In this document: in pieces, positions 14,891 to 23,381 of the stretch
Layout of the letters: the number at the start of each line of letters is the position of its first letter
Numbering within the stretch: the stretch's first letter is position 1
From: Sedimentibacter sp.
GTDB lineage: Bacteria > Bacillota > Clostridia > Tissierellales > Sedimentibacteraceae
NCBI RefSeq assembly: GCF_032080165.1
Contig: NZ_DAMASY010000001.1
Span: forward strand, 496,247-541,084
Reading direction: 5' to 3'
Length of the DNA stretch: 44,838 nt
The notes under the pieces: generated by a model
Told to the model about the DNA's origin: nothing
Seen by the model: only the letters and a program-made list of their open reading frames with translations
Database searches by the model: none
Position numbers and translations under genes: made by a program

Positions 14891-15148
14891 GTGTATATGT
14901 ATCCTGATAATTTAAAGGCCAAAGCAACATTATGGCTATGGGAATTAAAAGATATAGGAATTATTGGAATCGGTCTTCTTATTTCTGTATTTTCCTTAGC
15001 ACAGCTTGGATTTATGCCACCTATTGTAATAACAGCAGTATATAGCTTTTTAACTATACAATTTGAAGACACAAGCATACTGAATTTCATTCGTTATGCC
15101 TGTGTCTTTTTTCTTTTAAAGCAACAGGTATTTGAATGGAGGTTATAA
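14891..15148 (+). CDS. PrgI/VirB3-like small T4SS membrane protein
   Basis: 85 aa. Pattern PDNLKAKATLWLWELKDIGIIGIGLLISV... with two hydrophobic segments, as in PrgI-family proteins. Lies immediately upstream of VirB4. Confidence 0.5.
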   Translation: MYMYPDNLKAKATLWLWELKDIGIIGIGLLISVFSLAQLGFMPPIVITAVYSFLTIQFEDTSILNFIRYACVFFLLKQQVFEWRL

Positions 15149-15741
15149 AATTGGGAAGAAAACAGAAACAGAAAGAAAGACAAAAGCAATCTACTAGAGA
15201 ACTGATTGGTATTGATGAAATCACAGATTATAGTCTAAAGACTCCATATGGAGAGCTAGTGTATTTTATTATTCATCCAACCAATATATCTGTATTGTCT
15301 GAATCAAGTGTAAGTGCAAGGATCTATGCGCTTATGACAGTACTTAAGGGGATTGCTGAAATTGAAATGCTTTGCCTTAATTCAAAAGAAAACTTTGATG
15401 ATAACAAGCAGTATTTAAAAAGAAGAATGGATACAGAGCAAAATCCTGTTATTCGGCAACTACTACAGCAAGACAGTACCAATCTTGATAGGATGCAAGT
15501 TCAGATGGCTACAGCTCGTGAGTTTCTAATTATTATTAGGCTTAAGAATGAAAAAGAATCAGATGTATTTCCTTATCTTTCAAGGATTGAAAAGAGCTTA
15601 AAAGACCAAGGATTTACTACTAGAAGAGCTGATAATTTGGATATAAAAAGACTTCTTGGTGTTTATTATGAGCAGAATGTAACTACGGAAAGATATGAAG
15701 ATTATGATGGAGAGAGGTGGGTGGTATTTGGGGATGTGTAA
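15136..15741 (+). CDS. VirB4-like conjugal ATPase, N-terminal 201-aa fragment (gene interrupted)
   Basis: N-terminus KQKERQKQSTRELIGIDEITDYSLKTPYGELVYFIIHPTNISVL has the layout of Firmicutes VirB4/TcpF/Orf16-type N-terminal domains. No Walker motifs are present. It ends at a stop where the family normally continues. Confidence 0.65.
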   Translation: MEVIKLGRKQKQKERQKQSTRELIGIDEITDYSLKTPYGELVYFIIHPTNISVLSESSVSARIYALMTVLKGIAEIEMLCLNSKENFDDNKQYLKRRMDTEQNPVIRQLLQQDSTNLDRMQVQMATAREFLIIIRLKNEKESDVFPYLSRIEKSLKDQGFTTRRADNLDIKRLLGVYYEQNVTTERYEDYDGERWVVFGDV

Positions 15742-16003
15742 ATGTTAATAATCTGTAAGTTTATTTGACCTTAGATGGCAGTCGGTGATAGAGTTGCTTA
15801 GTTTGCTCCTTTTGCTCCATTTACTGGTCATAATGCTGCAATAAAAGAAACAGCAAAATTGAGTGATAAGAGATAACACTACAGATTTAGTGAGTAGATG
15901 TACGTAATCAGAAATTCATTTTATAATTCAGTATTTAAAAACTATATCTTAGCATGATGCGTCAAGAACTTGAGATTATTATCCTTGATTTTGCTAAATA
16001 ACA

Positions 16004-16032
16004 TTGACATCATGACATTTAATGATTATAAT
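16004..16032 (+). promoter_or_regulatory. consensus sigma-A promoter (TTGACA - 17 nt - TATAAT)
   Basis: TTGACA at 16004-16009 and TATAAT at 16027-16032 with an exact 17-nt spacer, about 35 nt upstream of the XRE-family gene. Confidence 0.6.
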
Positions 16033-16063
16033 AAAAGGGAAAAATATAATTTGAATACAAGGG

Positions 16064-16285
16064 GTGTATGTCGTGAAGATAAGCTACAAGAAATTATGGA
16101 TAATGCTCATTGAAAAAGACATCTCACCTGCCACACTCAGAAAGGATTTGAATATTGCTTCTGGAACGATGACGAAGCTTCGTCGAAATGAGGAAGTAGC
16201 TCTTTCTGTCCTTTTACGTATATGCGAGTATTTAGACTGTAATATAGGCGATATTTGTGATGCTGTACGAACAGACATTGGTTAA
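16064..16285 (+). CDS. XRE/Cro-C1 family helix-turn-helix transcriptional regulator
   Basis: HTH signature ISPATLRKDLNIASGTMTKLRRNEE. The start is GTG 16064, or more likely GTG 16073 after AAGGGG. Confidence 0.7.
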   Translation: MYVVKISYKKLWIMLIEKDISPATLRKDLNIASGTMTKLRRNEEVALSVLLRICEYLDCNIGDICDAVRTDIG

Positions 16286-16349
16286 GTTAGTACTTTTGTG
16301 CTGAGAGAAGGGAACGATATGGACTTCAAAAATCAAAAAAGATGACATA

Positions 16350-20971: not shown

Positions 20972-21149
20972 AATATTGGATGATATTAAGAATAGTAACA
21001 TAGTGTGATTCTGCTGTATTGTTAGTTACTGGTTTTTGTGATATATTTTTAATAGAGAGTAGTGTGATTTGGCATATGCTACTGAATTGTGGTTTTGAGA
21101 GCCAGACATAGTATCTGGCACCATGATTTATAGAAAGGTGGCTACTTTT

Positions 21150-21347
21150 ATGACAAATGAAAACACAGAAATTGTTGTTGCTCAGCAGAAAATGGATTTG
21201 AAAGCTGAGGCAAAGAAACAGCTTCAGATTGCAGTGACCCATTCTTTACAATGTGCAAAAAAACCTGCAAAGGATTTGGCGGTCTATGCTGTTGATTACT
21301 TTTTAAATTGTTTTATTGATTGGGTGGACAGCAAACTCTCTGCGTAG
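21150..21347 (+). CDS. small hypothetical protein (65 aa)
   Basis: AAGGTGG RBS 7 nt before ATG. Sits upstream of a terminator-like hairpin. Confidence 0.3.
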   Translation: MTNENTEIVVAQQKMDLKAEAKKQLQIAVTHSLQCAKKPAKDLAVYAVDYFLNCFIDWVDSKLSA

Positions 21348-21397
21348 CGAATACTAGATAAATAGATTTATTTATCTTGCGTTCATGCGGAAGGCGT

Positions 21398-21425
21398 TAT
21401 GCTCTGGCAGAGCGCTTTTTCTTTA
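21398..21425 (+). terminator. putative intrinsic terminator (gctct-ggc-agagc + TTTTTCTTTATTT)
   Basis: Short GC stem followed by a T-rich tract, upstream of the VirB4 C-terminal ORF. Confidence 0.4.
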
Positions 21426-21560
21426 TTTAAAATCATTAGTAGTAGATGGTGTACAAACTCCAGTTTGAACTACTGATAAATAATTAATATAACCAAGCCT
21501 TGCACTAAAAATGTAGGGCTTTTTTTAATGTAAAAAAAGAAAGAGAGGTAAGTAGATATC

Positions 21561-23381
21561 ATGGTAAAAAAGAAATTACCAATCACTGAAGATGGAAAAA
21601 TAAAAACCTTTGTAGATATGATTGCTCCATCCATCATTAAATTCAATACAGATCATTTTATCTGTGGCAACACCTATAGATGCGTATGGGCACTTCGTGA
21701 ATACCCCACAAGTACTAGTGAACAAGCAATCCTTCGTCATTTAGGAGAAAAAGATGGGGTTACCCTTAGAATCTATACAAGACAAGTAACTTCAAACGAG
21801 GAAAAGAAAATCATTCATAATGCAGTCAATAAAAACAGGATGAATACGGCAAATACAAATGATTTACAGCAGACCGTAACAGCAGAAAGCAATTTACAAG
21901 ATGTTGTCACCCTTGTATCGGCAATGCATAGGAACAGAGAACCACTCCTTCATTGTGCAGTATATATTGAACTTACTGCAAGTGATTATGACAGCTTGAA
22001 ACTACTACAGACCGATGTATTAACAGAGCTTGTTCGTTCTAAGTTAAGTGTAGATAGACTTATACTACGACAACAGCAAGGCTTTTTGTGTGTTGGTCCG
22101 ACAGGCAGAAATGTATTTGGTAGTCAATATGAAAGAGTACTTCCAGCATCCTCAGTTGCAAATCTATATCCCTTTAATTATTCAGGCAAGACCGATAGCA
22201 ACGGATTTTATTTAGGTAGAGATAAATTTGGTTCTAATATTCTCGTAGATTTTGATAAAAGAGATGATGATAAAACAAATCCTTGTATCCTTATTCTCGG
22301 TAATTCAGGACAAGGAAAAAGCTATTTATTAAAGCTAATATTATGCAATATCTTAGAATCAGGAAAGAATGTTATATGCTTAGATCCAGAGCATGAGTAT
22401 GTGGAACTTGCAGAAAATATAGGTGGATGTTTTGTAGATTTAATGAGTGGAGAGTATATGATAAATCCACTAGAACCAAAGACTTGGGATGAGGGAGGAA
22501 GTCCACAAGACAAAGATGCTCCTCTTGCATTTAGACAAGCAACCAAACTAAGTCAGCACATTAGCTTTTTAAAAGACTTCTTCAGATGTTATAAAGATTT
22601 TGATGATAAGCATATTGATGTCATTGAAATTATGCTTGGCAAACTCTATACCAAATGTAACATCAATGACAGTACAAATTTCAGCCGATTAGAATCTGTT
22701 GATTATCCTATCCTTTCAGACCTTTATACATTAATAGAGGAAGAATATAAAAGCTATGACAAGGGGAAATATCAGCTTTACACAGTAGAATTACTACAAG
22801 AAATCTTGCTTGGACTTCATTCTATGTGTCAAGGTGCAGAAAGTAAGTTCTTCAATGGACATACCAATATAACTTCCAATCGATTTATTGTATTTGGTGT
22901 AAAAGGGTTATTGCAGGCCAGTAAAAATGTAAAGAATGCATTGCTATTTAATGTGTTATCCTTTATGTCAGATAAACTATTAACGGAAGGAAATACTGCA
23001 GCTGGAATTGATGAATTGTATTTATTCCTTACTAATCTTACTGCAATAGAATATATCCGTAATTTTATGAAGCGAGTGCGAAAGAAAGAATCTGCGGTAA
23101 TACTTAGCAGTCAAAACCTTGAGGACTTCAATATTGAAGGCATTAAGGAGCTGACGAAACCGCTGTTTTCTATCCCAGCACACGCTTTTTTATTTAATGC
23201 AGGAAATATTGATAAGCAGTTTTATATGGATACCTTACAGCTTGAAGAATCAGAATATAATCTTATTAAATTTCCACAGCGAGGGGTGTGCTTATATAAA
23301 TGTGGTAATGAGCGTTATAATTTAGCTGTCCATGCTCCAGCATATAAAGAAAAGTTATTTGGAAAGGCAGGTGGGAGGTAG
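21561..23381 (+). CDS. VirB4-like conjugal ATPase, C-terminal 606-aa part (Walker A/B and C-terminal domain)
   Basis: Walker A ILILGNSGQGKSYLLK and Walker B-like VICLDPEHEY. An in-frame stop lies immediately upstream of the ATG, and the gene has its own AGAGAGG RBS. The N-terminal ~200 residues expected for VirB4 are absent here and present in ORF 15136..15741. Confidence 0.8.
   Translation: MVKKKLPITEDGKIKTFVDMIAPSIIKFNTDHFICGNTYRCVWALREYPTSTSEQAILRHLGEKDGVTLRIYTRQVTSNEEKKIIHNAVNKNRMNTANTNDLQQTVTAESNLQDVVTLVSAMHRNREPLLHCAVYIELTASDYDSLKLLQTDVLTELVRSKLSVDRLILRQQQGFLCVGPTGRNVFGSQYERVLPASSVANLYPFNYSGKTDSNGFYLGRDKFGSNILVDFDKRDDDKTNPCILILGNSGQGKSYLLKLILCNILESGKNVICLDPEHEYVELAENIGGCFVDLMSGEYMINPLEPKTWDEGGSPQDKDAPLAFRQATKLSQHISFLKDFFRCYKDFDDKHIDVIEIMLGKLYTKCNINDSTNFSRLESVDYPILSDLYTLIEEEYKSYDKGKYQLYTVELLQEILLGLHSMCQGAESKFFNGHTNITSNRFIVFGVKGLLQASKNVKNALLFNVLSFMSDKLLTEGNTAAGIDELYLFLTNLTAIEYIRNFMKRVRKKESAVILSSQNLEDFNIEGIKELTKPLFSIPAHAFLFNAGNIDKQFYMDTLQLEESEYNLIKFPQRGVCLYKCGNERYNLAVHAPAYKEKLFGKAGGR

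Follow-up and report, generated by a model that had tools for sequence, protein, structure and literature searches.

VirB4 is the signature ATPase of type IV secretion systems (T4SSs) and is usually taken as one polypeptide of ~800 aa. Shorter or split versions of VirB4 are, as a rule, discarded as errors or pseudogenes. Here we describe a locus in which the protein is encoded by two genes. The window, namely the whole stretch of DNA that was analyzed, comprises 44,838 nt of Sedimentibacter sp. (GCF_032080165.1, NZ_DAMASY010000001.1, positions 496,247-541,084 of the forward strand) and carries the T4SS genes of an integrative and conjugative element (ICE). The closest described systems are the single-chain VirB4/TraC-type ATPases, including NF045975 (Mbov_0397), NF045971 (CD1110), VirB4 of T. 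pseudethanolicus (4AG5), and R388 TrwK. They have the same ATPase domain with the Walker A and B motifs, their N- and C-terminal regions follow the same collinear order as the two pieces in the window, and their operons offer an alike context with a small membrane protein encoded upstream, a VirB6-like TrbL, a T4SS coupling protein (T4CP), and a relaxase. Unlike these ATPases, the VirB4 of the window consists of two genes and two polypeptides, referred to as VirB4-N and VirB4-C, with the break inside the N-terminal region and the pieces up to 5.8 kb apart. Gene boundaries at the membrane-proximal N-terminal end of VirB4 are likewise plastic in some MPF_T systems, in which VirB3 is fused to VirB4 (PMC4027160); there two proteins are fused, whereas the window shows a fission inside VirB4 and keeps the putative VirB3-like gene of 85 codons separate. 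In the same profile-building study, VirB4 fissions were thrown out as presumed sequencing errors or pseudogenes (PMC4027160). In the searchable literature, neither a naturally split VirB4 nor the ICE family of the window was found to be described, and a 2025 review of T4SS diversity makes no mention of a split VirB4 (PMC12857230).

The initial annotation of the window had recognized two open reading frames (ORFs) as the halves of one VirB4, with 201 and 606 aa adding up to the full length. Both ORFs are present on the plus strand where it had placed them (Table 1), and alignment supports their assignment. VirB4-N matches the NCBIfam profile NF045975 (VirB4_plasma, 894 positions) at positions 93-287 (E = 1.6e-5), and VirB4-C matches it at positions 291-893 (E = 1e-90), hence their coverage is contiguous and non-overlapping. 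VirB4-C also matches the CD1110 family of NCBIfam (E = 2e-48) and the Pfam families AAA_10, DUF87, and P-loop_TraG; VirB4-N matches no Pfam family, and its sequence and profile searches against PDB chains gave no match even at E = 10. Residues 208-599 of VirB4-C correspond to the VirB4 C-terminal domain of Thermoanaerobacter (4AG5, E = 2e-44). The Walker A motif is GNSGQGKS at residues 247-254, and the Walker B motif is formed by Asp484-Glu485 within IDELY at residues 483-487. As judged by homology, Walker motifs, and T4SS gene context, VirB4-C is a VirB4-type T4SS ATPase. Since the 606-aa protein keeps ~207 residues in front of the ATPase domain, the break is located inside the N-terminal region and not between this region and the ATPase domain. 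The initial annotation had taken the 606-aa ORF to lack the N-terminal domain altogether, which needs correction. A single-chain VirB4 joins an N-terminal region of ~400 aa to the ATPase domain in ~800 aa, and the VirB4 of the window does not have this arrangement.

Single-chain relatives locate the break more precisely. In the fused protein P0322 of 801 aa, residues 11-183 resemble VirB4-N (41% identical) and residues 203-801 resemble VirB4-C (63%), and a search with P0322 retrieved at least 15 clusters with lengths of 762-832 aa, of which some have 16-59 members. Twelve single-chain relatives of 762-832 aa are collinear with the 201-aa and 606-aa proteins, with 33-59% identity in the N part and 58-70% in the C part. 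Their alignment places the junction between the conserved motifs ...YxDYDGERW and KDFLDMIAP..., in a linker of 0-35 residues that varies and is mostly Lys-rich. The AlphaFold2 model of the fused relative P0423 (mean predicted local distance difference test score, pLDDT, of 67) has a pLDDT of ~30 at residues 173-234, which are the linker. Foldseek aligned the model of P0423, a 70%-identical relative, with 4AG6 at a TM-score of 0.88 over the ATPase domain and with full-length R388 TrwK/VirB4 over 870-918 columns (E ~1e-21). The secondary-structure order in this model prompted us to consider the N-terminal region as a tandem duplication split between its repeats; the idea was rejected at the sequence level, with an hhalign probability of 0.1% between the VirB4-N family and the first 212 residues of VirB4-C. 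The fused forms are limited to sister lineages with 58-70% identity in the C part, and one of them, an 803-aa VirB4, has an 89-aa gene directly in front of it in a related element with MobL, DUF3991-Toprim, and T4CP genes. In a neighbor-joining tree of the C parts, built with neither bootstrap support nor outgroup, the family of the window is one clade beside fused P0423 while a split clade of 611-631 aa is found elsewhere among the fused lineages, which hints at more than one VirB4 fission.

The split is a conserved trait of the family. We retrieved 80 genome loci that surround homologues of the 606-aa protein and located the homologues of VirB4-N and of the 85-aa protein in each; gene order and gaps were counted in the 77 loci with sufficient upstream sequence. 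The order 85-aa gene, VirB4-N, VirB4-C holds in 77 of 77, the 85-aa homologue standing immediately upstream of the VirB4-N homologue, and a fused ORF occurs in none of them and in none of the 120 best homologues. These best 120 matches to VirB4-C, 86-96% identical and coming from Tissierella, Anaerotignum, Robinsoniella, Oscillibacter, and others, are all 587-620 aa long. Of 5384 VirB4-N homologues, the best 120 are almost all 194-214 aa, with a single one of 314 aa. A search of 50%-identity representatives with VirB4-N gave 1026 clusters, and most of the 150 listed, from which lengths were read, are short stand-alone proteins. The VirB4-N gene is intact in 76 of the 77 loci, L033 being the exception; the "stop" reported for L040 is located upstream of where the gene truly starts. 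By the length of the gap between the VirB4 genes, the loci form three classes, with 29 loci having at most 37 nt, 9 having a spacer of ~125 nt, and 39 having 0.46-5.5 kb. Hence, the pieces are separate genes also in the 29 loci free of cargo, and, contrary to what the initial annotation had proposed, it was not the cargo that split virB4. The uninterrupted virB4 that it suggested searching for in related ICEs occurs in none of the 77 loci, and no uninterrupted allele exists among relatives at least 84% identical. Its alternative, a two-piece VirB4 that tolerates insertion, proved essentially right, as cargo-free and cargo-bearing loci are both split. It had also named, as the finding that would overturn its reading, a family that naturally encodes a VirB4 of ~600 aa plus a separate, unrelated ~200-aa protein. 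The 77 loci constitute a family with a ~606-aa VirB4 and a separate ~200-aa protein; this second protein is, however, the N-terminal piece of VirB4 and not an unrelated one.

The junctions without cargo exist in two states. Sequence was displayed for 17 of the 29 compact junctions, and in these the N and C ORFs are separate and lie in different frames, mostly with an 8-nt overlap (GTGAGTAA). Specifically, the junction mostly reads ...GGTGAGTAA..., with the GTG start codon of VirB4-C overlapping the TAA stop codon of VirB4-N by 8 nt in the +1 frame. A second, more distant split clade (192 aa plus 612 aa) has the identical 8-nt overlap. From the sequence, this overlap would fit translational coupling of the two genes in the compact loci. 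The other state is the conserved spacer of ~125 nt (gap ~123-133 nt) seen in L053, L054, L068, L077, L078, and L082-L084. It contains no cargo, has a long GC-rich hairpin (CCGTAGGGGG...CCTCCTACGG), and brings its own GGAGG ribosome-binding site (RBS). The spacer may represent an ancestral or empty form of the slot or, alternatively, a regulatory RNA.

Both VirB4 pieces are under strong purifying selection and are not pseudogene fragments. The ratio of nonsynonymous to synonymous substitutions (dN/dS) against cargo-bearing relatives is 0.04-0.08 for VirB4-N and 0.03-0.05 for VirB4-C, and against L096, which has the same cassette as the window, it is 0.064 and 0.036, respectively. VirB4-C is 96-97% identical in the cargo-bearing elements of Anaerotignum (Lachnospirales), Hathewaya (Eubacteriales), Aminipila (Peptostreptococcales), and Sedimentibacter (Tissierellia), that is, across two classes of Bacillota and three of its named orders. 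Isolates with a cargo-bearing element include Anaerotignum neopropionicum DSM 3847 (L011), Hathewaya proteolytica DSM 3090 (L012), and Tissierella carlieri (L003). Such identity across four genera indicates a recent horizontal spread of cargo-bearing split-VirB4 elements. With both pieces under purifying selection and elements with cargo widespread, the earlier suggestion that the cargo inactivated the ICE finds no support.

The VirB4-N/VirB4-C junction is a cargo hotspot of the ICE. The 39 cargo loci contain 81 ORFs in 63 protein clusters, and Pfam matched 48 families on 59 cluster representatives, among them GNAT, AraC/Cass2/GyrI-like, Fic, HEPN, MerR, metallo-beta-lactamase fold, Y-family polymerase, GIY-YIG, and one IS110. 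Other junctions of the backbone, namely TrbL_5 to DUF7768, methylase to the 85-aa gene, and the 170-aa gene to amidoligase, are near-invariant. A second hotspot is located between DUF3852 and TrbL_5, with 74-4997 nt across 35 related loci. In the window, this second slot lies between DUF3852 (9916-10266) and TrbL_5 (from 11875) and has the same design, with a promoter-like site at 10289-10317, a PIN_12 gene at 10472-11749 (425 aa, GC 0.26-0.27), and a hairpin at 11821-11845; L096 holds DUF2089 genes there instead of PIN_12. Unrelated cargo at fixed core-gene positions that differs between syntenic elements is likewise known from the hotspots HS1-5 of SXT/R391 and the variable regions of ICESa2603. 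SXT/R391 hotspots stand between core genes, and their cargo may supply or alter the promoter elements of the next core gene (PMC4542580). Different from SXT/R391, the slot of the window stands between the halves of one ancestral gene and has a recurring frame of promoter, terminator hairpin, and RBS; Bet/Exo-type recombination genes, as compared with SXT/R391, did not turn up, with no search aimed at them.

This frame is recognizable at both borders of the slot. In the clade of the window, a conserved promoter of the extended -10 type comes after the stop codon of VirB4-N. At this left border the relatives go on with TGnTATAAT, whereas the window departs after TTTATTTGA and retains the -35 part only, up to position 15769. 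Over all unique junctions, 13 of 34 have a promoter match of at least 10/12 within 70 nt of the N-gene stop, often TTGAAA-17-TATAAT beginning 9 nt past it, compared with 0.4% of control windows. At the right border, a hairpin of at least 7 bp followed by a T-run lies within ~80 nt before VirB4-C at 39 of 41 unique cargo junctions, whereas random windows have one in 1.9% and shuffles in 0% of cases. It is typically 25-40 nt upstream of the VirB4-C RBS or start in cargo loci. The border hairpins have 17 different 7-nt stem arms, which indicates that the stem is kept by compensatory change. The RBS and the hairpin that the initial annotation had seen ahead of the downstream half are both present (Table 1), in addition to the hairpin conserved in the family. 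In loci with unrelated cargo, the stretch just upstream of the border hairpin is ~45-fold enriched in the motif AAATTCCAATTT, counted with at most one mismatch. Its copies lie 102-151 nt upstream of VirB4-C in L006, L007, L008, L009, L013, L017, L018, L019, L030, and L033, and the copy in the window, at 21455-21466, has two mismatches. Attenuation by a conserved leader peptide (K-F-Q-F) encoded upstream of the hairpin was considered and rejected because a start codon or ORF is mostly missing; the motif was kept as a DNA/RNA motif only.

The slot of the window is occupied by the largest cassette seen in it. The gap between positions 15741 and 21561 measures 5,819 nt and holds compositionally foreign genes; the 5.8 kb of foreign cargo with a regulator, zinc-ribbon proteins, an SPFH protein, and an orphan, as initially annotated, is confirmed by Pfam and GC content (Table 1). 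The SPFH-GYF_2 gene is the GC-richest part of the cargo, with 0.41-0.46 at 18.0-19.5 kb, compared with ~0.33-0.35 in the flanks and 0.29 at 20-21 kb. Hence, the AT-richer stretch that had been assigned to 20.1-21.0 kb stands, while the GC-richer one assigned to 16.8-19.7 kb is narrower (18.0-19.5 kb), the GC content at 16.8-18 kb being 0.355-0.376 and near the flank values. In L095, the start of the second zinc-ribbon gene is called at the equivalent of 17261, giving 313 aa. A Pfam scan of the cargo revealed no transposase, recombinase, or reverse transcriptase, and Rfam had no match over the whole window, in agreement with the initial annotation, which had seen no transposase, recombinase, or intron reverse transcriptase inside. 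Neither the target-site duplication that it had suggested searching for nor a terminal inverted repeat was found at the cargo borders, where short matches do not exceed chance level. We rejected the cargo as a defense system since PADLOC gave no credible matches. In layout the cargo is like the ydjG-ydjH-ydjI (samGHI) membrane-stress module, with two membrane/zinc-ribbon proteins followed by a soluble SPFH protein. In B. subtilis, YdjG and YdjH, which are both transmembrane proteins, recruit the SPFH protein YdjI (PMC8581546). Unlike ydjGHI, the window cargo has no PspA gene and its SPFH protein bears GYF_2, and the likeness is a lead based on layout only.

Table 1. Features at the VirB4-N/VirB4-C junction, numbered by position in the window.
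Feature	Position	Strand	Remark
Small protein, 85 aa, hydrophobic stretches	14891..15148	+	Directly upstream of VirB4-N; no Pfam or NCBIfam match
VirB4-N, 201 aa	15136..15741	+	Equals the first ~190 residues of single-chain VirB4
Conserved left slot border with -35-like TTGAC	15742..15769	+	Kinship with relatives stops here
Cargo cassette	15770..21494	+	Only the flanks match in the 85 related loci of the first-round comparison; composition differs from flanks
Cargo sigma-70-type promoter, TTGACA-17-TATAAT	16004..16032	+	12/12 match
Cro/C1-type helix-turn-helix regulator (HTH_26)	16064..16285	+	Pfam E = 2e-18
121-aa protein	16350..16715	+	No significant family in Pfam, NCBIfam, or PADLOC
Double zinc-ribbon and TM2 membrane protein, 153 aa	16786..17247	+	Pfam TM2 E = 3e-17, zinc-ribbon families
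Double zinc-ribbon (membrane) protein	17195..18202	+	Pfam Zn_ribbon_3, Zn_Ribbon_1, DZR
SPFH (Band_7_1) protein with C-terminal GYF_2, 454 aa	18374..19738	+	Pfam E = 3e-21 and 3e-17
AT-rich orphan, 299 aa, GC 0.29	20072..20971	+	No Pfam, NCBIfam, or PADLOC match
74-aa ORF	21123..21347	+	Called as 65-74 aa in L095-L098
Terminator-like hairpin closing the cargo genes	about 21400-21424	+	Hairpin of the initial annotation
Family-conserved terminator-like hairpin and T-run, right slot border	21495..21528	+	Hairpin 21495-21521
VirB4-C Shine-Dalgarno sequence, GAGAGG	21543..21548	+	Conserved as AGAAAGGA or AGAGAGG in cargo-bearing loci
VirB4-C, 606 aa	21561..23381	+	~207 residues of the N-terminal region plus ATPase domain

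The window cassette has been exchanged as a unit. It recurs at 99-100% identity in L095-L100, of which L095 is 100% identical to the window and L096 and L099 are variants, and the exact SPFH protein is found on at least 12 contigs. The cargo genes of the window and L096 are 98.9-99.7% identical with a synonymous divergence (dS) of 0-0.02, whereas the backbone is only 92.1% (VirB4-N), 91.8% (VirB4-C), and 90.6% (TrbL_5) identical with a dS of 0.38-0.50. The left breakpoint is at ~15703, in the last 40 nt of the VirB4-N gene, where mismatches drop from ~7-10 to ~1 per 100 nt. The right breakpoint is within 21400-21507, at the conserved hairpin, and mismatch density jumps at 21507. Near-identical cargo on backbones diverged by ~8%, with breakpoints at the slot borders, indicates that the whole cassette moved by recombination. 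Homologous recombination between co-resident related elements is the simplest mechanism for this one pair, the window and L096. The initial annotation had left the insertion of the cargo unexplained; exchange by recombination at the slot borders now gives a partial answer, which covers the movement of the cassette between backbones.

We consider it very likely that VirB4 of this family is naturally a two-gene protein, with the junction used as a cargo slot and the cassette swapped by recombination. The virB4 gene would have been split in the ancestor of an ICE family that has a MobL relaxase, TrbL_5, Amidoligase_2, and a Tad-like pilus and occurs in Clostridia and Tissierellia. The break would have fallen in the variable, mostly Lys-rich linker and given a VirB4-N of ~200 aa and a VirB4-C of ~606 aa. 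The basic state would be that of two ORFs in different frames, mostly with the 8-nt overlap, and the two polypeptides would assemble non-covalently into a working VirB4. In systems with solved structures, the N-terminal domain of VirB4 mediates dimerization and the contacts with VirB3 and VirB8 (PMC12857230), and VirB4-N probably supplies part of this membrane-proximal N-terminal module. The 85-aa protein is a likely candidate for a VirB3/PrgI-like partner of VirB4-N. Because the halves need no longer be contiguous, the junction has become one of the two main cargo hotspots of the backbone. Slot cargo of 0.5-5.8 kb typically stands between a sigma-70-type promoter just past the stop of VirB4-N and a hairpin before the VirB4-C RBS. 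The window cassette was gained or swapped as a unit by recombination within these conserved borders, and not by transposition. The sequence data show the fission, its conservation through the family, the purifying selection on both pieces, the hotspot, and the exchange of the cassette.

Several observations weigh against this explanation. In L033 (Tissierella praeacuta DSM 18095, gap 5.5 kb), VirB4-N has a nonsense codon at residue 55. In L097 (GCA_032080785.1), whose cassette is 99.9% identical to that of the window, VirB4-C is called as 270 plus 351 aa, a break that may reflect either a frameshift or a fault of the assembly. Some individual copies of split-VirB4 elements, as exemplified by these two, do decay. 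The relation of VirB4-N to canonical VirB4 N-termini beyond the clade is a weak match to a hidden Markov model (E = 1.6e-5), which only 5 of 40 diverse members show. The AlphaFold2 model of VirB4-N alone is unusable, with a mean pLDDT of 52.5 from 51 sequences that are all at least 84% identical, and the alignment of the P0423 model with R388 TrwK/VirB4 has a high root mean square deviation. The tree lacks the bootstrap support and the outgroup that polarity and number of fissions call for. Simple operon transcription is hard to square with a terminator-like hairpin that stands directly upstream of an essential T4SS gene. Lastly, we infer from sequence both the binding of the two pieces to each other and the conjugation of split-VirB4 elements, including that of the window.

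The hairpin leads to an extension of the two-gene explanation that is possible but doubtful, namely that the fission point is a dedicated slot for cargo expression, with the cassettes driven from a promoter at the left border and ended by the conserved hairpin ahead of VirB4-C. VirB4-C and the downstream T4SS genes would then be expressed via regulated read-through of the hairpin by antitermination or attenuation, maybe with participation of AAATTCCAATTT, and VirB4-N would be a free adaptor between the 85-aa VirB3-like protein and the ATPase.

Unlikely, though the best surviving of the rival explanations, is that VirB4-N is an independent accessory, either an adaptor for the 85-aa protein or a regulator, and VirB4-C alone is the ATPase. 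VirB4-C does hold ~207 N-terminal residues together with the full ATPase domain, VirB4-N diverges faster between clades (dN 0.18-0.22 vs. 0.12-0.13 for VirB4-C), and separate transcription units are possible in cargo loci. An independent accessory is at odds, however, with the strict co-occurrence and gene order in 77 of 77 loci, the overlap of the two ORFs in the compact state, and the existence of both as one chain in sister lineages. Given the role of the VirB4 N-terminal domain in dimerization and in VirB3/VirB8 contacts (PMC12857230), a role of VirB4-N within the VirB4 assembly is simplest.

A site-specific cassette system in the slot, either integron-like or with a dedicated recombinase, is in our view also improbable. 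Such a system would explain the many small, unrelated, and mostly same-strand genes, including the integron-associated Cass2 and GNAT, as well as the hairpin at the 3' border of nearly every cassette set and the enrichment of AAATTCCAATTT 100-150 nt upstream of VirB4-C next to unrelated cargo. However, the T-runs and G-U pairs of the hairpins are typical of intrinsic terminators, and no integrase adjoins the slot. The single mapped exchange breaks in homologous sequence, at the 3' end of VirB4-N and the hairpin, and no repeated att-like sequence was found around the cargo (attC models were not run).

That an intact virB4 was cut by the insertion of the 5.8-kb cargo, leaving the ICE a dead remnant, is very improbable. 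The sum of the ORFs, which gives a normal VirB4, and the position of the foreign DNA exactly between them are what this scenario predicts, and it would also agree with the VirB4-C called in two pieces next to the same cassette in L097. It fails on the split in all 77 loci, 29 of them without cargo, and on the missing uninterrupted allele at 84% identity or above. Moreover, the dN/dS of both pieces is 0.03-0.08, also after acquisition of the cassette, and the same cassette resides in two backbones diverged by ~8% with the pieces intact in both. The cargo has neither a target-site duplication nor terminal inverted repeats at its borders and contains neither a transposase nor an intron, and VirB4-C has its own conserved RBS and start codon in every cargo-bearing clade.

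Least probable of all is a rejoining of the halves into a single-chain VirB4, whether through a split intein, through RNA trans-splicing or a group II intron, or through programmed frameshifting. The compact loci, with VirB4-C in the +1 frame relative to VirB4-N and a stop followed by an A-rich run, superficially look like +1 frameshift sites, but GAG-to-AGU re-pairing would not favor a +1 slip by the prfB-type mechanism, both pieces align to fused relatives up to the linker and leave no space for intein halves, Rfam finds no intron or other RNA family, and in cargo loci a distance of 0.5-5.8 kb separates the pieces, in which promoters, terminators, and in some cases genes on the opposite strand are located. 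We rejected a +1 frameshift fusion for the compact loci because of its poor P-site re-pairing, and cargo loci clearly make two proteins.

The two VirB4 genes are part of a transfer module that in the window includes DUF3852 (VirB2-like), TrbL_5, NlpC/P60, MobL relaxase, DUF3991/Toprim, and the T4SS-DNA_transf coupling protein (T4CP). Upstream of the T4SS genes and in the same orientation, a Tad/Flp-like pilus module occupies 1014-7478, with genes for an A24 prepilin peptidase, an RcpC/CpaB-like protein, an AAA_31 ATPase, a T2SSE ATPase, two unannotated proteins of ~300 aa, and DUF4320. The sister element L092, which has a fused VirB4, carries sortase pili in place of the Tad-like module; the same VirB4/T4CP core seems to be joined to different adhesion/pilus modules. 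Amidoligase_2 and GGACT/AIG2-like genes (23906-25489) belong to the conserved core and follow VirB4-C and a 170-aa protein. The C5 cytosine DNA methyltransferase is also encoded by two ORFs, at 13151-13813 (N part, 220 aa) and 13467-14888 (C part). The same two-ORF form is found in L001, L003, L095, and L096, and a more distant clade (L086) has one gene of 586 aa; the methyltransferase may be a second conserved split gene of the backbone. The T4CP gene is at 33594-35462. From ~35500 to 44838 the gene content becomes host-like and the GC content drops to 0.26-0.30; encoded are a short-chain dehydrogenase/reductase (SDR), a two-component system, a solute-binding protein, and a ParA/NUBPL-like ATPase on the minus strand. 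Within the window, we identified no integrase gene by which to define the ends of the element.

Cargo hotspots between core genes are well established for ICEs. The split-VirB4 family is large, with thousands of sequences in at least two classes of Bacillota. Annotation pipelines that use CONJScan-type profiles or pseudogene calls should be cautioned against dropping its elements. The split marks a natural domain boundary in the poorly understood N-terminal region of VirB4 and gives a handle for telling the part that meets the VirB3-like protein from the one that drives the ATPase ring. The junction is a plug-in site for cargo that was swapped as a unit at least once, which bears on the uptake and spread of accessory traits by ICEs of anaerobes. 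The terminator just before an essential transfer gene raises a concrete question about transcription control. If the slot is indeed operated by regulated read-through, it would be a new regulatory and architectural design for T4SSs of Gram-positive bacteria, present in thousands of elements.

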